Below are positions 9,727-52,900 of a DNA stretch of 64,000 bases, piece after piece (positions within the stretch are counted from its first letter, which is position 1; each line of letters opens with the position of its first letter). The position numbers were made by a program, and so were the translations under genes. The stretch is from Candidatus Omnitrophota bacterium (lineage in GTDB: Bacteria > Omnitrophota > Omnitrophia > Omnitrophales > Aquincolibacteriaceae), in the NCBI GenBank assembly GCA_022711115.1, contig JAKLFP010000006.1:86214-150213 (forward strand). Reading direction: 5' to 3'. The notes under the pieces were generated by a model. The model saw only the letters and a list, made by a program, of their open reading frames with translations. It was not told the DNA's origin and searched no databases.

Positions 9727-10221
9727 TCACGCTTGTTTCTCATAAAAAACAACTTCAAGCAAGGGATCGTCCTGCAGTTTTTCCCGTGATTTTTCTTTAA
9801 AGGCAGCCGGGATTTCCGGATAAAAAACATCGCCCTGGTAATCGGCGTGAATACGGGTGAGATAAATGCCGTGGGCTCGATTAATGGAAGTCCTGTAAAG
9901 CTCCGCACCCCCAATGATAAAAGCGCGCTCGGTCTTCACATTTTTCAAAGCGTCCTCGAGCGTGGAGAAATAGGTTTGACCTGGATAGGGATTTTGACCG
10001 CTCCGATCCAAAATAAAGTTTTGACGTCCCGGCAACGCCTTGCAACCAAGGCTTTCAAATGTCTTGAGGCCCATAATCACCGTCTGGCCTGTGGTCATTT
10101 TTTTGAAATGCTGCAGATCTTTTGAAAAATGCCAGGGGAGTTGATTCCCCTTCCCAATCACTCGGTTATTCGCAACAGCCACAATATGGTAAAGCACAAA
10201 ACCTCCAAACTTTTTGACCAA
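9727..10221 (-). CDS. folA: Dihydrofolate reductase, copy 2 (tandem paralog)
   Basis: 164 aa. VIGKGNQLPWHF, VIMGLKTFESLG, LPGRQNFIL and IIGGAELY are present. By eye it is roughly 45% identical to copy 1. Confidence 0.85.
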   Translation of the reverse strand: MVKKFGGFVLYHIVAVANNRVIGKGNQLPWHFSKDLQHFKKMTTGQTVIMGLKTFESLGCKALPGRQNFILDRSGQNPYPGQTYFSTLEDALKNVKTERAFIIGGAELYRTSINRAHGIYLTRIHADYQGDVFYPEIPAAFKEKSREKLQDDPLLEVVFYEKQA

Positions 10222-20895: not shown

Positions 20896-21044
20896 GAATA
20901 TAAGGACTGTCCTGACTGCTCATTAAAACACTTGTATAGGGGAATGAGGAATGAAGTTTAACGGCTTTCAGTGTTACCGTCAATGACTAAAAACCTGTGG
21001 TTTGTCCGTTGCGCGCCTTGCCCTCTGCGTGTTATTCTTACGAC

Positions 21045-22169
21045 ATGTCCAAACCAGCGGCTCTGATCATCGGCTCCAGCGAGAAAGATTCTGACCTTTT
21101 TTATGCAACAAAGTTCATCGCACCGGATCCTTTTATTTTTGTGGAGATCCGGAATAAAAAATATCTCCTCGCTAACGATCTTGAGATCGACCGTGCCAAA
21201 AAACAGGCCGCCGTTCATGCCGTGGTCTCAACCTCTGTTTTAAGCAAAGCCTACCGCGCAAAGTTCAAGAAAGCCGCACCCCTCGAGGAGAAGCTTTTCT
21301 GGTTCCTGAAAAAGCATCGGGTCAAGTCCTTGATCATTCCTGCGGATTTCCCAGTCCGGTATTACGAGCCTTTAAAGCGCGCGGGATTCCGGATTCGCTA
21401 CAAAAATCCTCCTTTTTATGAAAAGCGCAGCATCAAGAACCGCTATGAAATTGCGGCGATCAAACAAGCTCTTCGCGCCACGGAATATGCCGTCGCGAAA
21501 GCGATCCAGGTCCTGAAAAAAAGCGTCATCAAAAAAAACAGGCTTTATTACAAATCAAAGCTTCTCACCAGCGAATTTCTCAAAACGATCATCCATCAAT
21601 CTCTTCTGGAAAAAAGCTGCATCGGAGAACATACGATCGTTTCCTGCGGCCAGCAGACCATCGACCCGCATCACCGCGGCTCCGGCCCCCTTTACGCGCA
21701 CCAACCGATCATCATGGATGTCTTCCCCCGTCATGAGCAAACGCTTTATTACGCGGATTTCACGCGCACGGTTGTCCGCGGCAAAGCTTCGCCTGTGTTG
21801 AAAAGAATGTATGCTGCCGTCAAAGAGGGCCAGAAAATTGCCTTTCAAATGATCCGTGCGAGGATGGACGGGAAAAAAGTTCATGCCGCAATTCAAGAAA
21901 GATTCTCGCAATCCGGTTTCCAGACCGGAAACATGGGAGGTCGCATGCAAGGTTTTTTCCATAGCACAGGACACGGCCTCGGGTTGGATATCCACGAGCC
22001 GCCGCGCATCGGCGCCGCCACTGACCTCTTGAAGGCGGGGCAGGTGGTGACTGTGGAGCCCGGACTTTATTATAAGGGTATCGGCGGTGTACGTCTGGAA
22101 GATGTGGTGCTTGTCACAAAAAAAGGCTGCACCAACCTCACTAAATTTCCTAAATTCTTAGAACTCTAA
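21045..22169 (+). CDS. M24-family Xaa-Pro peptidase
   Basis: The ORF track starts at 20997. MSKPAALI at 21045 is the more likely start. HSTGHGLGLDIHEPP, VEPGLY and GGVRLED form the metal-ligand pattern of M24B. Confidence 0.85.
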   Translation: MSKPAALIIGSSEKDSDLFYATKFIAPDPFIFVEIRNKKYLLANDLEIDRAKKQAAVHAVVSTSVLSKAYRAKFKKAAPLEEKLFWFLKKHRVKSLIIPADFPVRYYEPLKRAGFRIRYKNPPFYEKRSIKNRYEIAAIKQALRATEYAVAKAIQVLKKSVIKKNRLYYKSKLLTSEFLKTIIHQSLLEKSCIGEHTIVSCGQQTIDPHHRGSGPLYAHQPIIMDVFPRHEQTLYYADFTRTVVRGKASPVLKRMYAAVKEGQKIAFQMIRARMDGKKVHAAIQERFSQSGFQTGNMGGRMQGFFHSTGHGLGLDIHEPPRIGAATDLLKAGQVVTVEPGLYYKGIGGVRLEDVVLVTKKGCTNLTKFPKFLEL

Positions 22170-31900: not shown

Positions 31901-34900
31901 GACGTTTCAAAACTAATCTCATCAATCCTCATCTTCACCTGGAACATAAGCCGATACACAGCATCCCGGACCTCAGAAGGCGTACGTGCAAACACCTCCA
32001 TAGACTTGGATTCTGCTAATGTTTCCGAAACCTTTTTTGGGCTAATTTTCTCTGAAACAGTCATCACGTCGATCTTCTGCCCGATTTGAAACTCGGGTTT
32101 AGGCGCGACAGTCGGTTGAAGTGTGAGCGTGATCTCGCCTTTGTTGTTCTCGGCAGTCAATAAGAACCATCCGTATATTTCTTGGTGGGATGGCACATTC
32201 GCGAAAAAGTCGTTGCCCGTATCGTTCCAAAATGCTGAGGATTGAATCCGGCGACCTGCGCTTTGATAAATAACTTCAATGGCGTGGTCCCGCGCGATAT
32301 TCCACCGATCACCGATTTGGCGCAATGCGTCGGAAATCCGGTCAAATGTCAGCGGTTCAGAGGTCCACGTGTCTTTAGACGGAGCATAAGAAACGCTTAC
32401 AATGCGGTTCGCGTTATAACCGGTTGAACCGGCTTTCTCTTGGATATAAAGCGTCCCGCCTATCAATGCCTCGAATTTTCCTTCGTAAACAGTTCCATCC
32501 TGCATGGAAAGCTTCAACATCGTCCCCAAAGCGACATTTCCCGCTTGAGCATCCGTTTTAAATTGCGCGAACGGGACTTTGGCAAGCAACGTTTCCGCTA
32601 TGTTTTTGGCCATCCCTTCCGGCTTTGGTTGCTCTTCACCGCGCACTTCCGAGCGTTTGGAATCCACATAGGTTAGTGAGGGAGAGAGACGATCATCGGC
32701 AAAATGCAGCCAAAAAATTTCGCCTTTCTGAATAAGAATATCTCGCCATTCCATCGGACGGCTATAAGCATAACGCTGGCCTTTGCTAGAAACCTCTGCA
32801 CCGACCAGGGCCTTATCACTGAGCGAACGAAGACGGATAAGAGATTCCATCAGATCCGCGAGAGACGATTTCTTTAACGCCTTGACTTTTATGAGTGCTT
32901 CCGAGCCATGGATTATCTGGACAGCCTGCTGCGAAGCGCTAAGCCCGGAACCCGGACTCACTAGGCTTCTCAATTCCGAGCGGGACTCGGCGATGAGGAA
33001 GGAATCGCCGGCTCCGGCAATTTCGAAAGTTTTCAAATCCGGATTCAGAAAAGAGCGCCGGAACGCTTCGCCCAAGGACATCCGTCCCGCACTATCCAAT
33101 TCAATAAAAATGGCCCTGCGATGAATTTGATCCATATAGTCTCTTGCCGCAACCGGATCTTGAGGCGTTGTTTGCTCAACCATTTGCTGCCATGCTGTCG
33201 AAGGATAAACCCGCAAGGCTTTGCCTGCCTTTTCCGATACAGCGATAAGTTGAGTCTCCTCTCCTAACATGGTTCGGAAAGGTGCGGGAAGTTGGATCCT
33301 ATTTTTATCATCCACCTTGAAGGTATAAGAGCTGGTGAAGATCACCGGCGCCCGCACTTCAGAGCGGGAAATCACGGGTAAGAGACCTTTATATTTAAGA
33401 TCAGGTCTTTGTATGCCAAGAGAAAAATTTGAACTGCCATCCGCGTACCGGATCACCCATGGTTTTTCGGTTTTGCTTTGGGCTTCCAGCAGTTCAGAAA
33501 GCGATGGTAACTTCACCGGTTGGCCGTTCTTGAACCATTCCAAAACTCGGTTTTGCTGCGACGTATAGCCCAATTTTTTTGCTAGGGTCTCGCGAAGCGC
33601 TTGGGAATCCATGAACTTCATGGGCCAAGGAGCTTTAAGATCAGGCGGGAACCTTGGATTGGTGCGAATCCCGTATACTTGTTTAATTTCACCATCCTGG
33701 GTGATAAAAATTGCCTGGAGAGGGAAACGGCCGTCAAAGCTGCTTCGTAATTGGTCACCGTCAAAAAACCTGGTTTTAAACCGGCCAAAGTGAACGGAAA
33801 TGTTTTTGGCGCCGGTCCGATAAACGAGTTCATGGTCAGGTCCAAGATAAAATCCTTCGAATTCCGGGCTTCTCGGGTCCTGCGTTCCGTTGAACGCGAC
33901 AACTCCCTGCTCAACCGGCTGCTGATACTTCTGCGCCAAATCGAACAGGATTTGTTCTCCTTCAAAATAAGTGACATACGGATCAAGCGCCTGCGCGAGG
34001 TCCCTGTCCCCGAAAAGATTGCCGACGATTTTGACCGTAACGGGTTGCACTGCCTTTGCCCCTTCCGCTTGAGCAAGGCTGATGATCTCGATGCTGTTCG
34101 GATCCTTCGCAGGTTTAAAATCCACGCCCTCGATCAAATAAAGTTTGTCGCGCCAGGCCTGAAGCTGGCTAATCAATTCATTGATAGTGATCTGCGGTCC
34201 GGTTAATGGTTTCAACGTAATCCTCGATTGCCCGATCTGTATCCACCTTGTCGGGCTCGTCACGGACCGGCTGTAAAGAACTTGGGTTTCCGGTAACGCA
34301 ATGGCCGGTTCGGGTTTCTGTTCAACGGGTTCTGTTTTCTTGACTTCTTCTACAGGGGCTTGCGCTGTCTGAACCGGGGTCTTGGGAGAAGCAAATCCCT
34401 GCCGTTGCTGAGCCGCTTTCTCACGGAGTTCTTGCTCTTTCTGAGCTACTTTTGACACCCTGACATCCCACTGCCCGCTACGGCGGGCGTCGTCTTTATT
34501 CATTCGCACTTCAGAGCGGGAGGTAAGCTCGACAATTTGGACGGTAAGTCTTTTCATTTTCTCTTCAGCGGAAGTATTGAGTAATCGATAGGCCGTAAAC
34601 GGTCCCGCAAGCATTTCCGTCACTTCTTGAAAGCCATATTGCCTGACCTTCGGAATAGCGTAATTGAATTCCACAACCGTGACAGTTTGAGAAGCGCTAT
34701 CGACTTTAGCGATCACTCTTTTCCATGAAATGGAGCCGAGATTGGAATTGTCGATGCGCCAATCCTTAGAGATCAACACGCTATTTTCTAAAGTATCGAA
34801 GTCCCCTGCCGAGGTTTGAGAAGTGATCCTGCCGCTTGCCGTATTATTTTCAAGGAGCTTCAGAAGATCGCCATACGGGATGAATCTAACTTCCCCTTCC

Positions 34901-37900
34901 GCTTGCGAAATAACAAGATAAGATTTGTATGCGTCGTGTTCTTGTTCTGCGACAAAAAAGCTAAGATCGCCTGTGGTTTCATCTTTTTGGAAGTCAAGGA
35001 TCCGTTTCCCGGCAAGGAATGTTTCGATTTCTTTTTGAAGTTCCGCGGCAGAACGCCCATTCGCGGCCTCAAATTCAACCTGCCGTTCACCTTGCTTCAC
35101 GATTAATTTTTGTCCGGATTGTTCAATGATAATTGCCGGCGGCGCTGAGTAAGGCCCACCCCACGGAATGCGTCCTTTTCGGGACAGGCTGCGTACTTCC
35201 GAGCGCAACGCAGGTTTTTCCTGCGGTAATTTTCCCAAAACCGCTCTGGCCGCATCATGAACAAGGCTTTTTCCTTTTTCATCAAGACGATTTCCTGAAA
35301 CAAGCTGCTGGACAACATTGGTCACACGGGCATTTACAAAATCGATGAGATCCTGGACCGTCAAACCTGAAAATTCATAATAGGCCGGTTTGCTTTTGGC
35401 CTGCAAGGCGGCTTCATCCGTTTTTGTGATTTCGATGCCGAATCTTTCTTCGAGAGACTGCATCAGACTCATTTCATCCAGGGAATCCATGCCGAGATCT
35501 TCTACTAACCGATCCGTCAGACGAATTTCTTCCTCGATCGCGGGAGGTAAAACCTCTTTTAAAATATCGATGACCTCTTGATCAATATTTTCACTCACCG
35601 TTCCCCGCATTTCCGAGCGACTGGCCTTTCTTCTTTCATTGATGGCGTGCTGAAAGGCATTCGAAAGTATTTTGTAGGGATTTTGCGAATAAAAATAATT
35701 TTGCCACAACCAATGCGCCAGACCTGAAATCCCGATAAAAATCATGCTAAACGCAACCACGCGGGGGATCTGTTCCTCCGCCGGCAAGAAGAATGTTGCC
35801 GTCCCGATAAGAGGAAATATAATCCCCACCAGGACCTTCATAAAAGCACTGCTCCGTCGGAATTGGAGTTCAGCAAGAAAAGAGGTGGGGTTACCGTTTT
35901 CCGCTTTTTTGTAATTGTCGGCATATCGGTTTTTCATTTTTTCCCACAATTGTTCTAAGCGGTCTAAGGTTATCCGGTTTTTACTATTTGATCGGAGATA
36001 TGCTCTGACCGATTCATCAAGAGAGCGCAATTCAGACCTTGCTTCCGTAAAGAGAACAGGATTGATTAAGTCATGGCTTAAATTAAGGGCATCATATTTC
36101 AAAGCTTTTTTTTGCTGTAAAAGTTGAATGCTTTTTGAAGGAATAGTTCGAAACTCAATACGATCAAACTCTGGGACTGTTTCTGTCCTGACGTTTTTGG
36201 TCGGTTTGATGCCCATGGAAGATATCCAGCCTTCAAAGGTTGTTTCCCCTGCTTCTTCCTGAAAGAAGTAAAAACGAAGTTTGAACGGCCCTTGAACAAT
36301 GTCCTCGGGTCCCAATTCGCGGGACCGGATGGTCCCGGCAGCCCCCGCTAACCATGAAAACCACACAAGATGGGAAAATTGTGTCCTTGGCAAATGTTCG
36401 TGGTGGGAATTATAAAGTTTATCGGGAAGTGCGAGATAGTGCTGTACCGCCTTACGGTTCTTAAACAACGTGATCATAAGACCTAAGGATCCTTGCTCAT
36501 CACCTTCAAAGTCATGGGCATCCAACCGAAGCTCCCGCTCCCATCCGATGCCTCCATTTCTCATATTCCAAACAAGCGGTTGGTGGACCAGATCCGACAG
36601 TTTGAATAAAGGTCCCTGAACAGCCCGTACTTCGGAACGAGTTTCCAGCTTCCTTGGCATAAAGAAATTTCCCGCATCGTCCTTCGAATCCCCCATAGAA
36701 AGCTGCTCGATGCCTTTAAAAACTTCGGCAAAAAACTTTTTTGCTTCGGCCTGTCTTATAGATTTTGAAGCGATAGAAAATTCCACTGTGATATCACGGC
36801 CATAGCTATTCAGCATCGCCTGCGTGTGATAGTTCAAGCCTAAAAGGGTCATCTCGTCCCACGACAAAAGATTAAATCTCTGTCCGTCGCTGCGAATAAT
36901 GGCTGCTTGAAAACTCTTGTCTTGAACAAGATATTTTCTTTCGAGAAGATGTTTGGTTCTGGCGGTAGGCGCCGTGTGAAGCCCGAGAGCGTTTCCGATG
37001 CTGTATTTCTTTGCCGCGATCCAGCGATCTCCTATTTTTGTCAGCTTAAAATCAGTTTTTCTTAATTCGGAGCGCTGATCGTTCATGTAATTCGGCTTGC
37101 GGGTCACCGGAAAAGCAGGCTCGGCGGTTTTTCGGGCATATGCAAGCAGGTATTTCTGCATTTTTTCGTATTTTGTACCGACGTTGATCGGGCCTTCGAT
37201 CCCACGGATGGGCTCCGTCAGTGTGAATCCCGCGGCCCGAAGAAGTGTTTCGAAATAACTCGGCGTGACAGTAAAGACCCAGCCATTGAGAAGTCGATCG
37301 CCGCTTAATTTTTGATTTTTAGGCTTGAAGATATTTCCCCCCGGGGCCCATCGGACAAAAAGAGGCGCGTCTTTTTCGAGAAGGTCCCTGAGCGAAAGTA
37401 ATGCGTTTAGCTGTTCTTCGGGCGAAAAATAAAGGAGCACATCGCTGATAAAAATCCCTCCGAAAGTTTTCCCGTTGAAATCAGCCGTTCGGAAATCGGC
37501 GGTCATGAACCTGTCTTTAGACATGTCCCCGAAAGAGGGATCTTCGAGAGCGGCTTTGATAAGCGACGGCGAGATGTCCGTTCCCCAAAGGTCGGTAAAT
37601 CCCTGTTCCTTAAATTTCTTGAGCGCCCTTCCGATGCCCATACCCACATCAAGAATGCTTTTATCCTTGCCGGCCATCAACGCCAGGAACTGATCGATCG
37701 TTTCTTGATGCGGAGAAACGTTCCAATCGCGGAGCTTATGGCGTTCAAAATCAAGGGAGAATTCATCATCCGTCCAGTACCGGACATTGCTGATCGCCGG
37801 GTCGGGGGGTGATTTTCTGAAGGTTTCTACCGCCGCCTGGAATTCCGGAGAAGTTTCCATCAGCGTTGCCAAAACCCGGGCAAATTCCGGATGATGTCTT

Positions 37901-40900
37901 ATCTCGGAACGTTTTGGGGAAGCTGGGACTGCGGAAGATACAGGCAGCAACGGTATGAGCGGCTCATAATAATGTGGCGCCGGATTGTAGTAAGAAGAAA
38001 CGTCTTCTGTTTCTTGTGCGCGTAATTCATTGCGCGGTGGAGCAATGTAGATACCGTCAAAAACAAGTTTGCCAACCAGATTGGTCCCGGCGTATTCTCT
38101 TTTTACAATAAAATCTATCTGGGCAATGCCACCATCTAAATACAGTATTGGCACCTCTACTATTTGATTTGCATATACCCTGGGAATGTCTCTCCCATCA
38201 CTTCCATGCAGTTGTATTCTAAACTGGCTGGGCACATTAATTGTTTCAGCGCCAACATGAAGTCTCAGTATAGTATTAGTCGGCCAACTTGCCAGTGATA
38301 CGTAATTAATTTTCGCCCATGCCCCTTCCCAGTTGCCTTGCCTAAAATCAAAATTAATTGTCCATTTACCCCCTGAGATACTTTCAGTCACTCCGCTCCA
38401 AAGAATGCCATGACTGGTAACTAACGGGATCAGGGATATGTTTCCTGAGGCACTAAAAAATTCCTTCTCGAGCTCTGTGGAATTCAAAGGGCGGGTAAAG
38501 GATGCGTCTCCGTTTTTGCCGGGAACATTCGTAAGGACTGCGGAGGATCCCGTAAAATTAGCCGGATAAGTTCGTATGTCATAAGCGTTGTAATTGGTGG
38601 GGCCGGTAATATTCATCGTGACTTGATTTGTCGCAGGTCCTTTTCTGATCGACATCAGTATATTCGTCATCTGTGCCAGCGCGCTTTGCGCCTGAAGTCC
38701 GAGCACGAGCAGGCCGGTTATGACAAGTTTTGAGATCGCGCTCATCCGTACTTCAGAGCGGCCGGCGTTATTGTTGTCGTTCAGTATCTCCAGTAGTTTT
38801 AGAATGTTTGGCTGAAGAATATCTTCTGTTGAAACATACTTCCGAAGAATGGTTTCGACTTGAGCAACCCGTAAGGTCCTTTGAGCCGCTAAATCCCGTA
38901 TATCTCCGTAAAGAACACTTGCAACGCCCCCCAACCCAAAAGCAATAAGGAATGCTACTGCGCCAAATCCGAAAAGACCGATGCTCCCTATTCCTAAAGC
39001 CAACGCGAAAAGCTTATGACGTTTTAATTGGGATTCTGTTTTAAAGGAAAGCTCATTCATCCAAAACGTATATAAAACGGCTATCTGGGCAAAATCAACC
39101 TGCGCCTCCTCACCCTCCATTTGAGCCCATTTGTATATACTTTCCGCGATCTTATTCCATTCTTCTTCTTGATAAATCGTAAGCCGTTGTTTTACCCATT
39201 GAAGATCGACTTTCTCAATTGGTTTACGGGAAGCCGCCATAGATAGAATGTCATCAATAGCGCGCAAGGAATAAGGATGCGAAATTCTTCCTTTTTTGAT
39301 TGATTCGTTTAAAAAATTGATCCCCTTAAAAACTTCGGTTCTTCTTTCATCTATGAGAGGGGAAACTTCACCTGCAGGGAATGCCTCTCCACGCACCTCG
39401 GAACGTTTTTGAGAAACAGGAACTGTGGCAGGCATGAGTGATAGCCGATGACCGCTCCGGTTATAAATCACTCCATTGAGTGTTAGTGTTTGATCGTCAT
39501 TAAAATGGACGCTCTCAAGAGGAGCCTCTAAGGTTGCCCATTGGATTCCTAAATTGGGATAAGGATTGAACATGTCTATCAGATGGATCCCCGCCAAGTA
39601 ATTAGTCATACCTCCGGCGCGGACCCATTCTCCCCAAACTACCACCTTGCCATCCGGCGAAACATCCCAAACATTAGGAACCAATCCGCGATCTTCCGCT
39701 GAATCATGTAACTTAAACGTTCTCCAGGTATGCGAGCGCGGGTTTCGAAGATCAACCATTTGAAGCGTTTGAATGCCAGAGGGTAAACCTGGACCTACTT
39801 GCACCCATGTTCTAAGCTCAAAATCAGGATTGGAAGTAGCCCGGATAAAAGGTGTTGGCGAATATTGAATCAGTGGAAAAACCTGATCTGTTTTGACACG
39901 ATAAAAAGCCTCAGCCCAGTAAGGCGTCATATTCACTACGGTTTGGGTTGCTCCCACAATGCCGGCCTGTGCCGTGAACCAAGTCCCGGAAGCAAGATTG
40001 GTCGAGATCTGAACCCAGTAAGTACGGTTGGTGGAACTTTTAAAACCCATGCCCATGACTGAACCATTTTTTACAAAAGAAATTATTTCGACCAGATTCG
40101 TCATCTGTGCCAGCGCGCTTTGAGCCTGAAGTCCGAGCACAAGAAATCCAAGCAAGGCAATCTTGGAAATCGTCTTGGCGCGCATTTCGGAACGTGTCTT
40201 TGAATGATAAGTTCCGGGCAAATGATAAGTACCGGGTAATAGCTTTATATAAGTTTGCTGCCCCGGAGAAATAAAAGCCAGTTTCTCATCAAGTTTCGCC
40301 GTCACATCCACTATGTTTTCTTGCAAATTCCATGATGAGATAGCCTTAACAGTAAACAAAGGCCCTTCAGATTTCCAGGAGGGCGCACTCATCATCACAA
40401 ATCCCATCGCACTAAACGCTTCTATCGCATCCTTTTCGAATTCAGCCCTGGAATACGAACGGGCCGTCCGCGCCTCGGAACGCCGGATTCCGTTGCGGTC
40501 ATACGTCCTGTTGCCATTCAGAGTGATGGTTCCGTTTTCATTGAAGCGGATTGATTGCAACGGATCCGGAAGATCAAGAAAGATTCTTTGCTTGGTAGCT
40601 GGTTTATAAAAAACAGCACGATTGCCTAAGATTCCATAGACAACAATGACTCCATCCTGGGAAACATCCCATGGGAAAGCTGAAATACGCGCATAGTAAG
40701 CGTCATCAGAAATGATTGTCCATGTTCGATTACGCAAATTCATCATGTCAAAAAAGATATCCCATGATGTTCCCCCTGTCGTCCGCGGATCAATTCGAAA
40801 AGCGAAATCAGGGTTGGATGGGGCTCGGGTCCAACTAACAATAGATCCGGGTGATGAAGGCACAGCATACAAAGAACCGGCTTGTATTTTAAGAAACCCT

Positions 40901-43900
40901 TTCCCGGTAAAAGATCCGAACAACTGAACAGATGTTTGTGGGGTGCTAATGAAACCCGCCCAGGCAAAATTCCATGTGGGATTTGCCGTAAGATTCGTTG
41001 CAGTTAAAACGCGATGTGCGATATTGGTCCCGAAATTCGTTTCGCTGAGAAATCGTAGCCAAAGATTTGTCGGCGAGTAAGCAAACGAAGTGATCACCGG
41101 CGGGTTTATCTGCGGGATTGCGGGATACCCGATAGCACGGAAAAATCTCTGGCTTGGATTTAGAGCCAATCGATTTAAATAGAGGGCGACAGAATCCACA
41201 TAAGATTCTCGGCCGTAACCGCTGCCCATTACGTCAACTGACGTAACCGTATCGCCTTCCGCAAGTCCGAGCTCCTGAACCGTAAAAGTTCGGGTCACCC
41301 ACTGATTCTGCGGAACTAAAACAAAATTGGTATTGCTGGCTGAATTTTCATCATGCCTGTAATTAAAGTACCTGGCTACCTGATAGGCCGAGCCGTTGTT
41401 TCTCAAGCCATTCAATCGGAAATAAACTGGCGCTTCCCTCCCCGAACCGTCTCCAGTAAGTGGGGCTGAAACAATTTTGAAAGTTATATCAAATCGGCTG
41501 AAATTACTCAGCGTAATCGGTGTGTTATATTCCTGCATCATAAAACGGCCTTCACCGTAATCGGGAGGACGTGACAGGCTAACAACTCCTGTGCGTCCAT
41601 CGTAAGAAGAAAAATATCTGGGAACAGTTTCCGCATTAGTCGAATATGGGACCCAACTGTCTGGCAGGCTATTGGTAGATGATCTTTGAAGAAAATCCCC
41701 ATTGACGACCCCATCAACCACATCCGACGGAACCGTAAAGGTATAAGAAGCTGAACCATTCGTTGCCGCAACATTGGCAAAATGAAGAAAATTTGTGGCT
41801 GTCCCGTTGAAAAGCCGCTCAGCGCTTTGGATCTCATAGGTTTTGTTGGTCGCCGGCCCCGTGATGCCCAGCGTGAATTGATTGGTCGCAGGCCCTTTTC
41901 TGATCGACATCAATATGTTCTGCGCCCATCCTCCGACAGAGGACAGCATCAGGCCAATAAGAGCGGTAATCGCTAATTTGCCCCGCACTTCGGAGCGAGG
42001 TGCGACCGGAGCTGCGGAAGAAGTAGGCGGAGATTCTATTAGCGGCTCATAATAATGCGGCGTCGGGTTGTAGTAAGAAGAAACGTCTTCCGTTCCTTGT
42101 GCGCGCAATTCGTTGCGGCGTGGTGCGACATAGATGCCATCAAACACAATCCTCCCGACCATGTTGGTTCCCGCGTCTCTTTTGTCCAGAACAAAAGCAA
42201 GCTCGTTATGCGCAGTTGGCTTAAGCGGCAACTCTATAATCTGTCCCGCTTGTGGATTATGAACCCCTAGAATTTGCGTATTGGGCTTAAATTCGATTTT
42301 GATATAGGTCGGCAGATTTGTCGTACCGGCGCCAAAATGCAGCCTCAAAACCCTGTCGGCGGGAATGTACATTATATCTCCATACTTCAATCTCCCCCAC
42401 GCGCCGACTAAGCTGCTAATGTTAAAATCAAAGTCGATTGTCCATTTTTTGTCCGCTGAAATTCTCTCGACCACACCTGTCCAAATGATGCCATGGTAAT
42501 AAAATAACGGAATCCACGAGACATTCCCTACGGCACTAAAAAATTCGTGGTCTAATTGGCTCGAATTTAAAGGATGGACATAGGAGGCAATTCCACCCGT
42601 TGCGCGAATATTTGTTAAAACCATGGGTGAGCCTACGAAATTAGGGGGATAAGTTCGCAGATCATAAGCATTGTAACTTTTAGGACCAGTAATGTTCATC
42701 GTGACTTGATTTGTCGCAGGTCCTTTTCTGATCGACATCAAGATATTCGTCGCCTGCGCTAGCGCGCTTTGAACTTGAAGCCCGAGCGCAAGCAGTCCGG
42801 CCATGGCGAGTTTCGAAACCACTCCAACCCGCACTTCGAAGCGGGCGAAAGAAGTGATGAGTTGGCGGACTTCCCTGTGAACGGCAGGAGCCCCTAAAAG
42901 AGCTGAGAGGTTAAAGCGCGGAGAATTGACTTTTTTAAGATTGATATTGTCAAAACGCATCGGAAAGATTGGATCACCGTTCTCAAGAGTCGCTTCTCCA
43001 CCGGCCTTCAAGACCAGAAACGCTCCCTGAACAATATCCCAGATTGACGGAGTGGGTTTCATGTAAAAGATCTCAGGGTCTCCTTGGTTATAAACACCGC
43101 TTGAAATGACGCGCCCGATATTGATAAACCCGGATTCTCCTTTATTGAAGATCACTGAACGAGCCGCCGCCTGAACGGCCGCATAGTAAGGCGCCGGAGA
43201 AACTCCGGCTTTATCGGATTGATAAATAGCAACCCTGGCATTTGCAAGGGTACCGGCTGCAGGATCGATCCAAACGGGTTTTCCGTTCAATAAAACTCCG
43301 GGCCGATCCCGGGTGGCGGTCCACATCGAGCTGCCTGTTCCGTCAACATCGTATTCGGGAGCAAAAATAACTGAAAGGACCGGCATGCCGTCTTCAAGCA
43401 GAAGAAGCGCGGTATCATAGCCTTTCTTTTTTGTCTCATAAGCTTTAGTGCCATCAATAGGGTCCACGATCCAGACATGCTTCGCTTTCTTGGCATTCTC
43501 GATCAGCTGCCTGTTCGCTTCCAGATCGGCATCGTCCTGAGAAAAATTTTCTTCACCGAGGACCACAGAATCAGGCACGATCCTGGGAAGTTCAAGATTG
43601 AAGAGATTCTGAATGTCTCGATCAGCCTTTGTTTGCCCTGAGTTGTCACTTTTGACGACGCGATCCAGATCGGAAGACTGAAGGGCTTTTCGCATAATTT
43701 CACCGGCTTGTCTGGCTAGGCTTTCAACTTCACTCAGCGCTTTTTGAACTTCGCCCGGTGTTAAATCCCGCATTTCGGAACGAGATTTTGGTTTTCCGAG
43801 ACGGACGAAAAATTTATGATCCATGTGACCAATGGCGGTTGTCCGTGCTACCGGACGATCTCGATAAGTCTCATCGATCTTGTGCACCCGCAAACCTTTG

Positions 43901-46900
43901 GGAGCTTCCACGCTCAAGTTTGCCGTTTGAAGATCCGCCACTTGCCGCAAAGAAATCTTAACAACACCTTTTCCTGTCTCGATTACAAGCGGTTGGGACA
44001 ACGAAACCTCAAAAATTTGTCCGGCCAAAATCGCCACACCGCCTTTTGTGATCATCGAACCGTCCTTGATTAAAGGAATGGAAACCATCATCCTTTGCTG
44101 TTGTGAAGACAATGTATCGATCTGGACCCGGAAGATCCCGGGGCCGAAAACAAGTTTATGCCCGCGGGAAACGCGCATTGTCTCTGTGGTAAGGATAGTG
44201 GGCTTTTCCGGATTTCGCATTTCCGAACGATGCTTTTTTTCAATTCCTATTTCAGCATACAAAGGCTGCCCTGTGTCCTGGACTTTATGAAGATGAACAA
44301 TAATATCACCGACGGAAATGCTTTCTCCGGCAATCCGTCTGCCCTCTTGGATTACTTGGCCCTCCTTTAAAATTTGCAAAAAAGCGGCAGGCAGACTATC
44401 CCAACCATAACGACCGGGATAAGCTTCAACATCTACGGTCAAAGATAATCCATGGTCTAATTCGATAGTTTGCTGATCTTCAACACGTTTTAAGGATAGT
44501 TCTATTTCATTCGACACTTCAAGTTTTTGTCTTTGGGGACGGTTTTTATAAAGTTCTTTTATTCCTATCACGATCATCCCTAAGATCGCAGCCGGTGCAA
44601 CAATCCTGGCCAGAACAACCAGGGAATTGACCCAATCGATATCCATCCGCAATTCCGAGCGACGAAAATGAGGCGCTTCGTCCATTTCCGGGGCCAAAAG
44701 ATCTTGAGTTTGCTCCACCGCGGCCCTGACAACCGACATTTCATCAAGATAGCGGCGATAAGCGCGCGTGGTCACGGGATCGGCCGGCGATTCCTCGGAC
44801 AAAGATTCGATTTTCTTTTCCAGACCCTGAAGCCAGCTCGCCCATGCCGCAGAAGCCGCGTAGAGCCATCCCAGAGTTCTTACAAGATTTTCGACGTTTT
44901 CCGGTTTTGCGTTTTGACGGTCCGACAGAAGCCGTTCGGCCGCAGGATTGAATTTACGAACCAACGGATCCCGGATCTGGCTAAGCATGCTCGGTTGGTC
45001 CAGCCGGTTATCCTGGAGATGCCTTCCGATCTCTGTCTTGATCCTCACAGGGTCCGTGGAAGGATTCCCGTTGTGCGGCGCGAGCGCAAATAAAGCGTTG
45101 GAAACTTCTCGGAGCGCGGACAAAGCGTCGGCGTGAACCTGTTCCGGTAACAATTTATTTTGATAAATCTCTTCCAGACTCAACAGCCTGTCCATAAGAG
45201 ACGCGGTATTTGAACCGATAAAATCAAGCCCTTCCTCTCCGGCTACCGCCTCTTGTCCTTCTTTTTCAAGAAAACGCTGCGCTTCCCGTCTGCTCTGAAA
45301 GATCAAGGCCGTTTCATTTTCAATCCGCAACTCCGAGTGAGGCGTTTGGGAAGCCGTGTCCCCGCCCGTAAGCGAGAACAACCGCCCGCGCAACACCTCG
45401 AGCCGGCTCGATAAAACCTTCCGGCTACGTTCCAAATTTATCCGTTCTTGTAAAGAGGTTGCTTGGCGAAACTTTACAGCAAAAGATTTTGAGCTGGATT
45501 CCAAATTGGCGATCCTCAAACGAATCTCTTGTTCGTCAACTGGAATCCCCGGATCCGGATCTTCGGCACGCGCCTCCGACCGGGAGATCTTAGTCATGTC
45601 CGGAATATTCCCGAGCAGCTCTCCGACAGCACGGGCTATGCGAACCCGGGAATTGTTGGGATCATCACCGAAATTCCCGGCATTGCTCTGCACTATTCCG
45701 ATCAAGTCAGAGACAACTTCCGCTTGTTTACGGACAGCCTCGGGAAATCCTTCCGTGGAAATCACGTCGAACAGCCCGCCTTTATTTTCCGTAATAGCCA
45801 GGAAAAGTTCCTTCAGCTTTTCACGATCCCCTTTGAAATTTTCCTTGATGCCGGTCATGTCGGGATTAACGCTCCGGACCAAAAGCCTCAAAAGGATCTC
45901 GGCCTTGATTTCAGAAGTCAATGTCCGGTTGCTCATAATATCGTTCAGGACTTTTGCCCGCCGCTCCGCCTCAGAAAAACCCGTCATGGATTCAGGCAAT
46001 GATTCTCCGAGATTCAGAGCCTTGGATTTTTGTTCCTGCGCGTGAAACTCATAGGCCGAGGCCACGATCAGATCCAACCCACGCTGTGCCCGCCAAGCCA
46101 GTTTCCGCGTCGCCAATTCACTGCTGGCACGAAGAACATCCGGATCGCCCTGCCGGCGCGGACCGTAATCCACCACTAATTTGCCGCGCTCTGCCGCGGG
46201 AAGCACTTTCCTGAAACTTTCAACGATCTGATTATTGGAGGTTGGGGTTCCTGTCCCTAAGGTAAAGACTTCGCCTACTTTTTTATTCTCTGTCTTGGCT
46301 TGATAAGACAGTGACAAAGATTTCATAATCGCGTGACCAATGTCCAGAACATGGATATAATCCCGGATATTGGTGCCATCGGGCGTCTGATAATCTTTCC
46401 CAAAGATCTGGAACGGAACCTTTTCTTTTCCGTAAAGGAAATATTTGATGAGCCTCGGGATGAGGTGCGTCTCCGGACCGATATGCCCTTCCCCGACCCA
46501 CTCTCCGATCTCCTCCCAGTAAAACGCTCCTGCCAGATTGAAAAAACGCAGCGCCGCGAAATTAACGCCCTGCGCTTGATAGGCCTGCATCAGGCGTTCC
46601 ATCAGATATTTGGTCTCTCCGTAAGGGTTCATCGGTTTTGCCGGGATCTTTTCATCAAGCAATCCGTATTTATTGAAATTCTTTCCTTCAAAAACACCAG
46701 CGCTCGAGGCGAACGCCAGGGGGATCCCCAGTTCCTTCGCGACTTCTTCCACATCCAGCGTACCAACCACATTATTGTCAAAGTACGTCGCCGGAAAATT
46801 TCCGGAGACCCCAGCGGCAATGTAAGCCGCCAAATGAACAATGCTGTCCGCGTGATGTTCCATCGCGACCTGCTTCAAAAGATCGCGGCTTGCGATATTT

Positions 46901-49900
46901 CCTTCCACCACTGAAACTCTTCCAGGGTAGGCCGCCTGGACCTTCCGCAGATAGGCCTTCCGCTTGGGTGTGAGCATGTTGTCAAAAAGGACGACCCTGG
47001 ACCCGTTGGAAAGCGCTTCATACATGACCCCTGAGGCTACATAACCAAAACCTCCCGTGATCAAGACGGTCTTTCCTTCATGGATTTTAGGATCCACATT
47101 CGGAGCCACCGGGCTTTCGATCATGGATTTCTGCCAATTTAAAAAGTAGAGACGCTCGTCATCTTTAGGAAGGATCTCAAGTTCCCAGTTCTCTTTGATC
47201 AAAATTCCGCCGAGCTCATAAGATTTCTTGGAAGCCAGAAAGGCCGCGATCTTTTCAGGGATCCCTTTTTCCCGAAGTTTGCGTCCCAATTCTTCAGAAG
47301 ACATGTAAAAAGCTTCCTGGGCCGCGATCTCGACAGCGATATGATCGTCTTGCGTCACCTCCACGCCTCCGATGCTGCCAAGACTGGCCTGAAGACGTTT
47401 TTTCCAGTAATGAGACTGCGCCAGATACGAAGTAGCGACCGTTTCCACCACGGCTACGGCATCGGGCTTTTTGATCGGTTCGAAAGTATCTTCGCGCGTC
47501 AGCCCGACCAGAGGAGATTCCGGTCTGCGGGGCCTGTCATCGCTCGCACGTTCTAATTTTTTGACAGTTCTTGTATTCCCCTCGAAATCCACCTGCGGTT
47601 TGGTGTCAAGCCGCCACGGCGTTCGGCTGGACGCTTTGAGACTTTTTCTCCACAACACGCGAAAACTCGGGTCCCCCCACAGCACTGTGTCCTTAATGGC
47701 GTCCGTGGCGTTCCCGTAGCCGATATGGCGCCACTGCCCGTCGGAGGTTTTGATCTGGTTCCCAAGCCGGTCATCGCGATTATTTTTCTTCACAACACCC
47801 AATGCGATATGGGCTCGGTCATCCTGATTGCCGGGATTCCATGTCATTTGCCCGTAGCCGATCAATCGCTCATCCGCGATGGGGTTCAGCTGATTGTCCA
47901 CATTAAGGTACTGGACCACTTCAACGCCGAAGGAATCGAGAAAAGCGTTCACATCCTCCCGGAGAAGAACATCATCAAACGTATCCCCATGACCGGTTCC
48001 CCCTGTCGCGATCTCGCCGTTCTTGTTCAGAAAAGGCATTCCTGTTTTCGCGTCAAAAAGCGGCATCACGCCCTGTTGGGCGATAAAGATCCGGTCTTTC
48101 ATCCCGAACCACTGATTTTCCTCAAAGAACTGTATCGTTTTTTCATGGGTGATATCGCTTGTCATGATGATGACGGGAAAAGACGCGTCGTGACCGTAAT
48201 ATTTTGCTGCGGCCTGGATCTTCTTGATGATCCCGGCATAAAGCGGGAGCTGGCTCAAGGGTGTTCCGGGCAAAAATCCCTTGGGGTCAGGGCTCTTAAA
48301 CTCAGACCCCGAACCTCCGGCCGCCAGGACAAGCGCAAATCTTGATTTCCCGGGCATCGCCGGATCCGCCCGCAAAACTTTTTCCCGGGCCAGACGCTTT
48401 GCGGCGGCATCCTCCGCTGCTCCCGGTTCATGAACAGGAACGGTGAACGTTTCCGGAACTTCCGGCTTCGGCACTCCCGGCATCACAATCGTGTCCCGGA
48501 GTCGCTTGGCCTCTCTCCACAGAATTGTTTTAATCTGTCCGAGTATTTTTTTCTGCTGCTTTTCGCTTAAGGAATCCCACGGCGCCAGCAGGTGCTCCCA
48601 GCCGACTTCCTTGAGGCTTTTCATGGCCCAGGATGGGATTTCCGCGGCAACGCGTACTTCGGAACGTTTCTGCGAACCGCTTGCCGGAACAATCCCGCTA
48701 AGAATATCTTTTTCCCCCGCCGTCAGAACGGCATACGCTTGCGCGTGTTGTTCCGCAATGTCTCGCAAAACTTCTTCAGCGTAGTCTTCATCATCAACTT
48801 CCGGATCAAGACTTTGCATGACTTCTTTAAGAACGCTGGCGAATACTCTCGTGTTGAATTTCCCGTCGGCAAAAGTCTTCGGCAAAAGTTTCCCTTCCGC
48901 CAATTCCTCGGGAGAAAGGTCAAGTTTGGAGATCGCCTTTGCCGCGGCCTCTTCCATAACATGTAGTTTCAGGTCTTTCAGTGTCGGCACATCACGCAGC
49001 GCCCTGAAAATGGCCGGAAAACTGTAGCTGTTGTTCAAGGTGCTTCCCTGCGGGTATCCAAAAGCGCCTGTTGCGATAAAACGGATGTTCGGCATTTTTT
49101 TGAGTTCTGCCGGGTCCGCTTCGGGAGTCGGGTTCGAGCCCATAAAAGCACTGGCCTGGTCCTTCATGCCAGAAAAGATCGATTCCTTGCCCCACAAAAA
49201 CCCAGGCTCGGATAATCCTATAAAAGCATCCGCCCCTTGCAGTCCTTCCGCCAAACGCCCCTGATCGATCAAAGAAAGGACTATTTGGTTAATCTCGGGC
49301 ATAAGATCGCCGTATTTTTCGCTGAGAAATCCCGCGATGTTCTCCGGCAAACGGCCTTGTTTCTGCAGGGCCTCCATCGCGGCCAATCTTTCTGCCGCGG
49401 CATGGGCAACATGCTTTTTATCTCCTCCCTGCTCGACTTCGGCTAAAGCCAGTTCATGGGCCTTCGCAACCGAAAACTCCAGGCTTCCTTTAAATCCCTG
49501 AATGTTCAAAGCCGCCAGGTCATTTTTATGCTCTTCAAAGATTCCTTTTCGGCCCGAATAAAGAGGGCCCTTGGTGTCGTATACGATAATATTGCCACCC
49601 CCTGTTTTATCCATACCGAAACCGAGACGTTTCAGGAGAAGTGCTGTCGCGGTGGCAGAGGCCCCGGCGCCGGCGATCACCACTTTCATTTTAGAAATAT
49701 CACGGTTGGTTTCTTTCGCGGCCCGTAGAAGAGCTCCCGCAAAAACCATCGCGGTCCCGTGCTGATCGTCATGAATGGTCGTGATCCCTGTTTCGTTCAG
49801 TTCTCTTTCCAGCGGAAAACAGACCGGCGACCCGATATCCTCCAGCATCACCACAACCTCAAGTCCTTCCTCCTCGCGAACCTTGGTGACATAAGCCTGG

Positions 49901-52900
49901 ACTTGCTGTTTGATCTTTTCCTTAATCTCAAACGCTATTCGTTTTTTCGCCCCGGGATCTTTTTCTGCCTTGTATTTGAGCCACATGTCCCGCGTATCCA
50001 CAAACGCGATGTCCACGTTCACGCCGCCGAACCACTTCAGCAAAATCCTTTTCCCTTCCGATACCGCGCGCATCACGGCCGGCCACTGCAGTCCGATCCC
50101 AAGCACCGCGGAAGCGTCCGAAAAAATCACGATCTTTCTTTTTTGAGCCGGGAAAGACAAAGGCTTTTTGCCGTAAAGCGGCGTTTCAAGGTCCAGGCCT
50201 TTTTTCAGCGCGTCCGCGATCGCTTCACAAACGGCTCCCACGCCGGGGGTATAAACCGTCTTCATCGCTTCGATCACATCGACCGGGACAATGCCGTGCT
50301 TAAAAAATATGTCGATGAGTTTTTTGTAAGTCTGATATTCCGATGGGATCGCCGCCGGCAAGCTGTCCTCAGATGTCTCCCGAACTTCAGACCGGGGTCT
50401 GCTTTCCATACTAACCGCTACTTTGCAATTATTTGTGTCGGCCCGGGTCCTTACGCGGACATTTTCCCATCCCAATCGGGTAAGGTTTTTGAATGGAATA
50501 TCAAAGACAACCCAAGTTGTCCGATTTGAATCTACAATAAGCGAAGCTTCTTCTATCAATGCGTGGATATCTCCGTAGATATCAGCAGGCCTTTTCCCGG
50601 AAGGATCCACGTATAACCGCATAGGGATCCGGATCCGATCGTCCGGCTCAATGAGTTCGACTTGAAGTTGTTTGTGATCCTTAAAGAAGGATTGCTTAAC
50701 AAAAATATTGACGGCTTTGTCGTTTGTTTCGACGAAACCCGGAACCAAAAGGCTGATATCCTGTGCGGGTAAATGCCATTGGGGGCCTATGAAATCTCCC
50801 AGCGGCTCCCGAAAACTCCATGCCGTCAGCGCAAGAATTAACAACGCCATAGCCATACTTAGGTTTAAGAAAATAGCCCGTGAACTTAGGTTTGGATTCC
50901 ACCAGCGCCTTATCTGGGTGTCTGTGCGTGAAGCTTCTGGGATGGCAGCAACAGAACCGCCTTTCGGGGGCATGGTTCGTATTTCGGAACGGCGTCCAAA
51001 AGCTTTGGTAAGCGCTTCGGCAAGGGCTTTCGGATTGTCCCATGGAGCAAGATGTAATGAGGAATCTTTTTTGGGGTTTTTAAAAACAATTTTTTTCTGG
51101 AAAGGTTCAAGGCTTCGTTTTTCTCCTGACTGTATGACAGACACTTGTTTTGAGTTCAATCCAAGCGCCCGCTGTAATGTTAAAACAAGGTCTTCCGGAC
51201 TTTGCACAAAATCCAACGGGGCCATGTCAATGCCCACCCAAATACCGTTTCCAGCCTGATGAAAAGTTACCTCATACCCAAGTACTTTTGCCGTCTCACC
51301 CCGCATTTCGGAACGGCCCAGGTTTTGGCTTGGATCTGTTCTACCATTTGCGCGCTGATGAACGTTGATGATCGTTTGGGCGATCTCCATGGAGTTCATA
51401 ACAAAACCGTCTTTCATCACCGGTTTTACATTTTCGGTAACAAACTCCGAGGGACCCTGAGCGTAAACAAGCAACTGGCCGTCTTCGCTCTCAATAACAT
51501 GAATCCCATTCGGCAATGTCCTTCCCATACCTTGGATCAATCCTGCGAGCTGTTTTGCCGAGAAAACCGTGGTGTAATCACCGATGACCGCCGCAAGAGA
51601 TGTCGGATCTTTCCGGCTAGCGGCCCTCACTTCAGCCCGTTGAATGGCAGCAATTGCATTTTTTGCACTTAGGTGAACGGATGGATCTGAATCATTCAGC
51701 GCTGAGTAGAGCGCTGAAAGCGCTGGTTGGGCCTGGGGACCAATTTCCCCAAGTGTGATAATGGTCTGCTCACGAATCTCCGGAGAAGGGTCCCTCAATT
51801 GGGGCATTAACTGCCAAACTGCATCGCCCGCCTCAGAACCCAAGGCGCCAATAGCGGCAATGGCCTTTAAACGCACCTCTTTTTCCGGGTCGCCGATTAA
51901 ATGAAGCCAATCACTCACATTTTTCGGCATAGCCGTTTCAGACGTACTCCTCATTTCAGAGCGATTGTCCGCGGGATGTTTTCCTTCGAAGTGTGATGGT
52001 TTTTTGACAAAGGTGACTTTAGCGGTTGTCCCTTTAGGATAAGGATGTTTCAGGGTTTCGGGATTTTTTAAATCAACTGCTTTATGGCCGGGAGATGGAA
52101 TGATGCTGGCAATGTATTCACCGCCGCCTAGATTTTCACGTACCTCAACGGCTCGCTTGATAGCCTTGAGCGTCATGGTTGCCTCAAGTTTATAGATTTT
52201 AAAATGAAGGGCGTCGTCAGCTTTCACTTCCGTTAGCCCTTTGACCTTCGTCCTCATCTCGGACCTGGCAGAACGGCTTTTCAGGGTATCTATTTTTCTT
52301 TGACCCTCTTGATCTTCCGGTTGGATATAGCGGTGCAGAAAATGCCAAAGAAGAGATTCAGGAGTGAGAAGCGACTGGTCCCAAACCGGCATGTCTTTAA
52401 AAATCGTCTTGAATCGTTTCAGGACGTTGAATACAAAATCATTCTGCTTTCTCTGGAATTGCTGGGCATAGGCGATTTCGATTAACGGCCCCAAAAAACG
52501 GTTAAGAAACGGCAGTTCATAAGCAAGTTGTGTATTAATGGAACGATGCGCTTTTTTCATGGTTTTAAAGCTACGTTCCGTTTCTTCGAATCTCATCTTT
52601 TGCCATCTCCGGATCACCTCGGCAACCGTATGCTCCGGTCCCACCACCAAACTTGCGAGGATATCCCGCATCAAGCGGATGTCATAACCTGTCAGGATAT
52701 TATTGCCGTAAAGCAGCATATCAGGACTTGTATAAAGAAAGATCCCATAATGTGTTTCTTCAGGTTTCAAAACGGCCAACAACTCATCACTCAAAGCTTC
52801 AACCCCTGTCACAATCAAGGTCTCGTCCGGCGCAAGCTGCAAAAGCTGTTTTTCTCCTCGGTCGTCTTTAACGCGGATTTTCTTCCCGTCCAAAGCATTA

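Follow-up and report, generated by a model that had tools for sequence, protein, structure and literature searches.

The principle of cutting a polyprotein with a site-specific protease is familiar from viruses and, to a limited extent, from the MARTX toxins of Vibrio. In viral polyproteins, one open reading frame (ORF) encodes many unrelated products, a short conserved motif marks their boundaries, and the sites co-evolve with one protease. At the flavivirus C-prM junction, a basic site for a cytosolic protease lies directly before an internal signal sequence that carries a signal-peptidase site. The plastid-targeted polyproteins of Euglena and dinoflagellates are nucleus-encoded and carry conserved decapeptide linkers, from which a dedicated protease releases the units. 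Here, we describe a giant ORF of 11,695 codons in a 64,000-nucleotide stretch of Candidatus Omnitrophota bacterium DNA (positions 86,214 to 150,213 of contig JAKLFP010000006.1, assembly GCA_022711115.1; hereafter the window). This gene probably encodes a chromosomal polyprotein that is cut on the cytoplasmic side, at a recurring five-residue junction motif, by a dedicated site-specific endopeptidase.

The locus resembles viral polyproteins in its single ORF, its many unrelated products and its short boundary motif, whose sites vary in concert. The local layout of a junction followed by a signal peptide is the same as that of flavivirus C-prM. Unlike the viral cases, the gene is chromosomal, its cargo is of housekeeping type (metabolic and envelope proteins), it has ∼38 units instead of ∼10, no internal protease was recognised, and cleavage is deduced from sequence. 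The plastid polyproteins are likewise cellular, with a short conserved linker between units; they differ in being eukaryotic and in carrying tandem copies of one or two proteins, such as light-harvesting complex proteins (LHC) or the RuBisCO small subunit. MARTX toxins are cut after Leu in their linkers and are not known to have a strict five-residue motif there. Like the protein studied here, they are giant bacterial proteins with several unrelated domains, which in MARTX toxins are, and here probably would be, released by proteolysis in between (PMC6254334). However, MARTX domains are effectors delivered into host cells, whereas the cargo here combines cytosolic enzymes with bacterial Sec, twin-arginine (Tat) and lipoprotein signals. 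Pfam families for the MARTX hallmarks (RTX repeats and an inositol-hexakisphosphate-activated cysteine protease domain) were not found in the 11,695 residues.

Giant genes encoding up to 147,155 aa have been reported from Omnitrophota, and their products have been discussed as ‘multi-enzyme metabolic cluster’ proteins and ‘Archaeovorins’ (bioRxiv 10.64898/2026.06.07.730766; bioRxiv 10.1101/2023.11.21.568195; PMC10066038). These giants evidently belong to the gene class described here: distinct enzyme domains are tiled along a chain with an N-terminal signal peptide, scattered transmembrane (TM) helices and a flat TM density of ∼2%. West-Roberts et al. (2023, bioRxiv 10.1101/2023.11.21.568195) speculated on cleavage and stated that the cleavage points were unknown. 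A June 2026 preprint (bioRxiv 10.64898/2026.06.07.730766) treated the proteins as single chains and downgraded internal signal-peptide calls as ‘chunking artefacts’. It concluded that the metabolic content is periplasmic, a conclusion awkward to its authors. Neither these two reports nor Seymour et al. (2023) mention a junction motif, polyprotein processing, head and tail modules or lineage variants, and literature searches linking Omnitrophota or Omnitrophica to polyproteins, or on RSEVR, found nothing relevant. That a bacterial chromosome applies the polyprotein principle, with a lineage-specific motif, to dozens of unrelated proteins of housekeeping type does not seem to have been described before.

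The giant ORF runs for 35 kb without any interruption or stop when the window is re-translated (Table 1). It holds 33 strict RSE[VMLIA]R motifs, where 0.07 would be expected from its composition, and four variants (HSELR, RFEVR and, twice, RNELR) bring the total to 37 junctions. Cutting at the motifs yields 38 modules with a median length of 221 aa (range 40–1332 aa). Complete units identified by Pfam and PDB matches comprise glutamate dehydrogenase (GDH), malic enzyme, inositol monophosphatase (IMPase), an S-adenosylmethionine (SAM)-dependent methyltransferase, an acyl carrier protein (ACP) with its DSL motif, and MraZ. UDPGP and NAD-epimerase were also matched, and catalytic and cofactor motifs are intact. 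The ends of the GDH, ACP, MraZ, IMPase, malic enzyme and methyltransferase units coincide with module ends. Residues 18–19 of the GDH module align with residues 6–11 of GDHs of 415–424 aa, and the alignment reaches the C-termini of those proteins; in the ACP module, residue 8 lines up with residue 3 of free-standing ACPs. Modules thus begin where free-standing proteins have their N-termini. The MraZ and IMPase modules returned nothing from PDB sequences at the thresholds used. Several unrelated, complete units share one ORF with a short conserved motif at their boundaries, as processed polyproteins do. An initial annotation of the window had reported NAD(P)-, pyridoxal phosphate (PLP)- and SAM-dependent enzymes and an ACP interspersed with membrane-type segments. 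GDH, malic enzyme, methyltransferase and ACP agree with that description; the PLP enzyme is weakly supported, by a match of M37 to glycogen phosphorylase at E∼1e-4, over a stretch that we take to be the PLP-lysine region.

The surroundings of the motif are those of a linker. S, A, P, T and G are enriched upstream of the junctions and E, G, S and T downstream, and the first junction sits where the structure model of the N-terminal module (M01, the head) has a predicted local distance difference test (pLDDT) score below 50; both features are typical of an exposed linker. A second polyprotein ORF exits the left edge of the window and carries its own head, 31% identical to M01. The two ORFs together cover 42,030 of the 64,000 bases (66%), and the junction motif is all but missing from the ordinary flanking genes. 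The initial annotation lacks the second polyprotein, the conserved modules that form head and tail, and the variation of the motif by lineage.

The head gave access to related loci. In protein databases, its family has 13 matches among 5.8 billion sequences, several with downstream junction motifs, and a genome scan with the head alignment confirmed 150 copies, with more than one in several genomes. We kept 80 loci from many metagenome-assembled genome (MAG) projects for comparison (L002–L081). All organism-named records among them are Omnitrophota MAGs; the others are labelled ‘uncultured bacterium’. Most related ORFs exceed the 10-kb flank (>3,900 aa), and together they hold 239 copies of R[ST]E[VMLIA]R in 198,354 aa. 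Other lineages use other motifs, namely RPE[SA][RK] (16 times in L004), RAExR (L021), (L)SDSR (11 times in L026) and RSESR (L055); [AQ]SLG is a weak further candidate. Paralogous polyproteins of one genome have a variant in common though their heads are only ∼30% identical (RPE.[RK] in L004 and L058, RSESR-rich in L007 and L055, RAE.R in L063 and L064), while heads that are 46–50% identical but lie in different genomes go with differing variants. The variant thus follows the genome and not the head lineage, which is the pattern expected of many sites co-evolving with one trans-acting reader. Such co-evolution across the sites of a genome is a mark of polyproteins.

Modules have also been shuffled as units. 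MraZ, M21, M26, M37 and both halves of M12 occur at other positions and beside other neighbours in other genomes, bounded by junctions at the same offset. The placement of MraZ differs among L009, L013 and L022. Same-offset junctions are kept on both sides in L009 and L022, and L013 has a tandem duplicate of MraZ, in which a junction precedes the first copy and another follows the second. At these boundaries, the position of the motif is kept while its sequence drifts by lineage.

Export signals follow the junctions. M18, M20, M22 and M24 each begin, 0–1 residue past the motif, with a segment that has a basic n-region, an uncharged h-region of 11–13 residues and an A-x-A or G-x-A c-region ending ‘...A/Q’ (the slash marks the predicted cut). 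All four segments qualify as cleavable Sec-type signal peptides in a heuristic scan, and their c-regions are of the same type as that of the genuine N-terminal signal peptide of the ORF (‘...SYA/Q’). In the giant protein, six of 13 uncharged hydrophobic stretches lie ≤35 aa from a module start, against 11% expected (P=0.0016), in a test that is not independent since M18, M20, M22 and M24 are paralogues. A pooled test covered 42 ORFs of other Omnitrophota genomes (375 junctions, 117,463 aa); here, a junction lies 0–20 aa before the start of 34 of 195 hydrophobic stretches, where 6.6% was expected (P=2e-7). Post-junction signals, found in relatives at the start of unrelated modules, include Sec-type signals (L017, L006 and P0004), lipobox signals (‘...MMGFSGC’ in L027, ‘...YLALGC’ in L055) and twin-arginine signals (‘...FSRRHFLAGAG...’ in L080, ‘...FSRRHLLQAAA...’ in L030). 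In L030, Pfam TAT_signal matches module residues 5–21 with E=0.004, which is below the cut-off.

These signals create a topological problem for an intact chain. All four internal signal peptides are oriented N-in/C-out, and no return helices lie between M18, M20 and M22. In a parity model of the intact chain, the paralogues M18 and M22 end up on the side opposite to M20 and M24, and GDH, IMPase, the methyltransferase, ACP, the DNA-binding MraZ and the phosphorylase-like enzyme fall outside the cytoplasm. The coherent alternating in/out map of a single-chain polytopic membrane protein was not obtained. The initial annotation had listed the signal-peptide-like and TM segments and had considered them incoherent for one polypeptide. 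All of them are present at the positions it gave in the continuous ORF, and the parity model bears out the incoherence. A coherent topology requires the chain to be severed at the cytoplasmic side of each junction. Release of modules at the junction motif, which that annotation had also proposed, is supported by the parity and comparative data. Its argument that a buried signal peptide makes sense only if it becomes N-terminal was too strong, because internal signal sequences function in flavivirus polyproteins and in polytopic proteins.

The current literature reads such genes as one uncleaved, giant, polytopic and membrane-anchored multi-enzyme megaprotein, in which the TM helices are ordinary and the motif is a favoured linker. 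The ORF is indeed continuous, and the cleavage itself, its exact scissile bond, its compartment and its protease are what we infer. The 2026 preprint, which discounts internal signal-peptide calls, also classes such proteins as single chains that carry a signal peptide along with TM helices or that carry TM helices only. However, this reading would split paralogues between compartments and leave MraZ, ACP and GDH outside the cytoplasm. It also has to accommodate a run of N-in/C-out signal peptides that have A-x-A sites and no return helices between them, as well as lipobox and Tat signals after junctions. Moreover, a passive linker would not be a strict five-residue motif that changes in concert in each genome. 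We therefore regard an intact megaprotein as improbable.

The codons of the motif bear on the remaining alternatives. The motif is conserved at the peptide level: third codon positions vary synonymously, and all six Arg codons occur at the last Arg. Its 5′ half shows a codon bias (CGY-TCN) in a count over the 37 window junctions and 304 junctions of L002–L081. The first Arg is CGY in 79% of cases (AGR 4%, against 25% in the background) and the Ser is TCN in 90% (AGY 10%, against 32%), while the last Arg is unbiased. The bias is partly accounted for by interchange of S, P, A and T at position 2. It could also mean a translational-kinetics signal, as expected if the motif were read by something other than a protease, for example as a co-translational pause or as the site of a chaperone or targeting factor, with the chain left intact or trimmed non-specifically. 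The position of the motif within flexible linkers agrees with such a role. Nonetheless, the topology problem would remain, Tat substrates and lipoproteins depend on a signal region at a free N-terminus, and the genome-specific drift of the motif would still demand a dedicated reader. We give such non-proteolytic punctuation only a small chance.

Separation at the ribosome, whether through 2A-like skipping of a peptide bond or through termination followed by re-initiation at the motif, would yield stoichiometric separate products without a protease, and motif position 4 is an NTG codon in 24 of the 37 window junctions. In relatives, however, this codon is often GCG, ACG or GTC, and there is no Shine-Dalgarno-like conservation upstream of the junctions. 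A search of the junctions for the 2A-type D(V/I)ExNPGP signature found neither it nor Pro-Gly-Pro, nor any conserved upstream residues beyond the small/polar enrichment. Unrelated variants such as SDSR, and possibly ASLG, are hard to square with a conserved peptidyl-transferase centre, and we rate this mechanism as very unlikely. Still more remote is a processing site or ribozyme that cuts the mRNA into module-sized pieces. The nucleotide bias seen in the motif's 5′ half would suit it, but the synonymous variation of every third position, including the six codons of the last Arg, would not, and an Rfam scan of the 64-kb window matched no family. The 38 modules share one frame without a stop, which would be needless if the RNA were cut, the pieces would lack stop codons, and it is at the peptide level that the lineage variants can be understood. 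An assembly or annotation artefact, or a decaying pseudogene fusion, has only the unusual size of the gene in its favour and is effectively refuted by 35 kb without a stop, normal flanking genes, intact motifs for catalysis and cofactors, and the same architecture in at least 80 independent loci of many MAG projects.

In the processed-polyprotein reading, ∼38 independent proteins would be translated as a single chain. A dedicated endopeptidase would cut at or beside RSE[VMLIA]R on the cytoplasmic side, during translation or soon after. The residues that precede the motif resemble natural C-termini in being small, a likeness too weak to place the scissile bond. The released modules would then act like ordinary gene products, each obeying its own targeting signals. 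Most would remain cytoplasmic, among them GDH, malic enzyme, IMPase, the methyltransferase, ACP and MraZ; M01, M18, M20, M22 and M24 would be exported via their own Sec signal peptides, cut at ‘...A/Q’; and M10, M15, M23 and M29 would be inserted into the membrane.

Several points weigh against this reading. The signal-peptide calls are heuristic. No mature cleavage products have been reported in the searchable literature, no peptidase family was found in the giant ORF by Pfam or NCBIfam, and no protease gene is conserved beside the polyprotein genes of related loci, where the recurrent neighbours are a polyketide-cyclase-like protein, an EEP nuclease/phosphatase, an ACT protein, the glycine-cleavage P protein and LplA. 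The codon bias of the motif leaves some room for a co-signal at the nucleotide level. In addition, the Sec signal peptide of the head should place the best protease candidate outside, while the topology needs cytoplasmic cleavage, and a motif that tracks the genome instead of the head lineage fits one separate protease better than it fits the heads.

The case for the head as a protease comes from its association with the junctions and from its fold. It occurs three times in the window (in the giant ORF, in the second polyprotein and as a stand-alone gene), and each additional motif-rich ORF with a visible N-terminus opens with a head. Its domain belongs to the TIKI/EreA/ChaN/TraB superfamily, which includes the Wnt protease TIKI1/2, erythromycin esterases, PrgY/TraB and the MARTX effector RRSP, a TIKI-fold sequence-specific endopeptidase (PMC6254334). 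The predicted structure has the parallel β-sheet of an α/β core, with RRSP among its structural neighbours; it differs from the superfamily in a helical insertion of ∼300 residues that divides the core. The family conserves [D/E/N]82-x-H84, E112, R475 and H503, of which H84, E112, R475 and H503 are invariant. From these residues, the head appears to reproduce the 2His/2Glu catalytic constellation, which in RRSP consists of E3900, H3902, E3930 and H4030 and includes the pair H85/E113 in Bcr135 (PMC6254334). The H-to-E spacing of 28 residues is that of RRSP (H3902–E3930) and Bcr135 (H85–E113) (PMC6254334). At E≤0.01, the head matched nothing in Pfam or NCBIfam; PF04187 (ChaN, Tiki superfamily) matched four of 12 head members, with a best E of 0.0046, below the cut-off. 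Neither Foldseek against the PDB nor the head profile against PDB sequences gave a significant match. An NCBIfam search of the head, the tail and eight unannotated modules was likewise without a match.

The stand-alone paralogue is divergently oriented to the adjoining polyprotein gene in at least 18 related loci (L003, L005–L011, L013–L017, L019, L021, L022, L024 and L073), as it is in the window. These paralogues are ∼725–790 aa long, consist of a signal peptide, a TIKI-like domain and an extension of ∼240 aa, lack the junction motif and keep all invariant catalytic-type residues. The idea that they are a head joined to a tail without cargo was rejected, as hhalign detects no homology between the extension and the tail (probability 0.07%).

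The tail module, M38, terminates clade-A polyproteins and has only two database relatives; its AlphaFold model is unusable (mean pLDDT 39.5). Each of the 17 polyprotein C-termini that are visible has the ending SA or AA, which only 2.1% of ordinary ORFs have (P∼3e-29). They come from the giant ORF (25993–26010) and from L002, L011, L013, L022, L025, L030, L034, L035, L046, L050, L070, L072 and L078. Among the stand-alone head paralogues, 15 of 19 end in AA or SA and four in SV. The SA/AA end could be a recognition signal of the ssrA-like or tail-specific-protease-like kind, or a mark of complete translation.

As to the identity of the junction protease, we see an even chance that it is a separate cytoplasmic enzyme. 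The head or its stand-alone paralogue is a tentative candidate with a lower probability, and other possibilities make up the remainder. A shared internal module was also considered: only the head is universal, in a comparison that is partly circular since the loci were fetched by head homology, and M37 occurs in 13 loci. One polyprotein-encoded peptidase came to light in L007 (ORF aa 1240–1746), an S8 subtilase module with a combined twin-arginine and lipobox signal (‘MNRRQFLAG...LGGC’) that has kept its own Met ∼16 aa past a degenerate junction (LREAR). This subtilase would be exported and is therefore no candidate for cytoplasmic junction cleavage. A bolder scenario, which we hold to be rather doubtful, is that Omnitrophota make a large share of their proteome as chromosomal polyproteins, in a self-contained third mode of bacterial gene expression beside single genes and operons. 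The share would extend to cytosolic housekeeping enzymes, a transcription factor, membrane proteins and the substrates of the Sec, Tat and lipoprotein routes. The head or its paralogue would then be the endopeptidase, its specificity would drift by lineage with the junctions following, and SA/AA would mark full translation.

The junction motif supplies exact predicted cut sites for the in silico dissection, structure prediction and annotation of the Omnitrophota giants. It accounts for their proteome-like mixture of signal peptides and TM helices and implies a dedicated protease with rapidly evolving specificity. If processing of this kind takes place, it would be the first cellular, chromosomal polyprotein system with dozens of unrelated housekeeping proteins. 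It would be relevant to the control of stoichiometry with few promoters in ultra-small, host-dependent bacteria, and it could offer synthetic biology a natural bacterial toolkit for fusing and cleaving proteins.

Table 1. Features of the proposed polyprotein locus, in window positions. The 37 junctions of the giant ORF (15 nt each, spanning 26794-59202) were each re-translated as a check and carry the strict motif unless a variant is given.
Feature	Position	Strand	Basis or remark
Giant polyprotein ORF, 11,695 aa, ∼38 modules (M01-M38)	25993-61080	-	ORF scan
Head M01, aa 1-631: Sec-type signal peptide (aa ∼10-34, ‘...SYA/Q’) and TIKI/EreA/ChaN/TraB-superfamily domain	59188-61080	-	ends at first junction
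Stand-alone head paralogue, 725 aa: signal peptide, TIKI-like domain, C-terminal extension	61396-63573	+	no junction motif; ends KKSV
Tail module M38, 266 aa, ends ...FAMARSA (stop)	25996-26793	-	last module in relatives too
M06, complete GDH from ∼10 aa past junction, with ∼320-aa C-terminal extension	52252-54705	-	Pfam/PDB matches
M30, ACP	35191-35604	-	alignment to free-standing ACPs
M33, MraZ	32968-33351	-	Pfam match; comparison with L009, L013, L022
M18 signal peptide, VGVVSKLAMAGLLALGLQVQSALA before QA, straight after RFEVR	42751-42828 (aa 6085-6110)	-	heuristic scan
M20 signal peptide, GKLAITALIGLMLSSVGGWA before QN, straight after RSEVR	41917-41982 (aa 6367-6388)	-	heuristic scan
M22 signal peptide, AKTISKIALLGFLVLGLQAQSALA before QM, straight after RSEMR	40102-40179 (aa 6968-6993)	-	heuristic scan
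M24 signal peptide, MSAISKLVITGLLVLGLQAQSALA before QM, straight after RSEVR; Met retained at +1	38668-38745 (aa 7446-7471)	-	heuristic scan
M10, TM segment or signal anchor near N-terminus, 34 aa past junction	50818-50877 (aa 3402-3421)	-	
M15, N-terminal TM segment or signal anchor, 9 aa past junction (RSELR, then M...)	44557-44622 (aa 5487-5508)	-	
M23, internal 36-residue hydrophobic hairpin	38905-39012 (aa 7357-7392)	-	
M29, two internal TM helices	35704-35847 (aa 8412-8459)	-	
Junctions 1-9	59188-59202, 58297-58311, 55891-55905, 55489-55503, 54706-54720, 52252-52266, 51949-51963, 51301-51315, 50977-50991	-	
Junctions 10-18	50380-50394, 48652-48666, 45568-45582, 45325-45339 (HSELR), 44647-44661, 44215-44229, 43768-43782, 42829-42843 (RFEVR), 42103-42117 (RNELR)	-	
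Junctions 19-27	41983-41997, 40468-40482, 40180-40194, 39391-39405, 38746-38760, 38020-38034 (RNELR), 37897-37911, 37060-37074, 36625-36639	-	
Junctions 28-37	36025-36039, 35605-35619, 35191-35205, 34504-34518, 33352-33366, 32968-32982, 32641-32655, 31234-31248, 30790-30804, 26794-26808	-	
Second polyprotein ORF, at least 2,314 aa, exits left edge	1-6942 (start codon at 6942)	-	
Junctions of second polyprotein	5008-5022 (RSEIR), 4021-4035 (RAEVR), 3769-3783 (RSEVR), 1426-1440 (RSELR)	-	

Some modules show features of their own. M12 (45568–48651; 1,028 aa) is a junction-free fusion of UDP-glucose pyrophosphorylase and NAD-epimerase. In L021, the UDPGP homologue (aa 2771–3265) starts 8 aa past a junction, and in L020 the epimerase homologue (aa 660–1139) comes directly after the head and terminates at a junction; the differing layouts indicate that junctions can be gained or lost. 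The secreted modules include two duplicated pairs, M18 with M19 (42103–42828 and 41983–42102) and M24 with M25 (38020–38745 and 37897–38019). Each pair has an internal RNELR, a putative junction, followed by a Pro/Ser-rich mini-module of 40–41 aa. M20 and M22 have a common N-terminal region (‘NILMSIRKGPATNQ...’). For M24, a search for free-standing homologues in 1.84 billion representatives returned only two weak matches. M03 contains a low-complexity stretch rich in Lys, Glu and Ala (aa ∼1160–1300 of the giant protein, ∼57100–57600), with KEKEE..AAQK repeats, which overlaps a strong AT-skew anomaly at 56001–58000 (−0.358).

A tRNA scan of the 64-kb window found nothing. The ordinary flanking genes, which have a normal structure, encode ThyA, two dihydrofolate reductases, an ABC transporter, a split transketolase, GGT, a peptidase of the M24 family and a menaquinone gene product. 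The peptidase gene (20997–22169, plus strand) lies 4 kb from the end of the giant gene and encodes an enzyme resembling Xaa-Pro or methionine aminopeptidases. As a member of an exopeptidase family, it is unlikely to be the junction cutter, but it could trim new N-termini. The two dihydrofolate reductase genes stand in tandem and adjoin the thymidylate synthase gene (9193–9684, 9727–10221 and 10278–11072, all on the minus strand). Transketolase is split over two adjacent minus-strand genes, one for the N-terminal thiamine pyrophosphate-binding part and one for the pyrimidine-binding and C-terminal parts (19131–20075 and 20077–20895), an ordinary split gene beside a region that fuses dozens of proteins.

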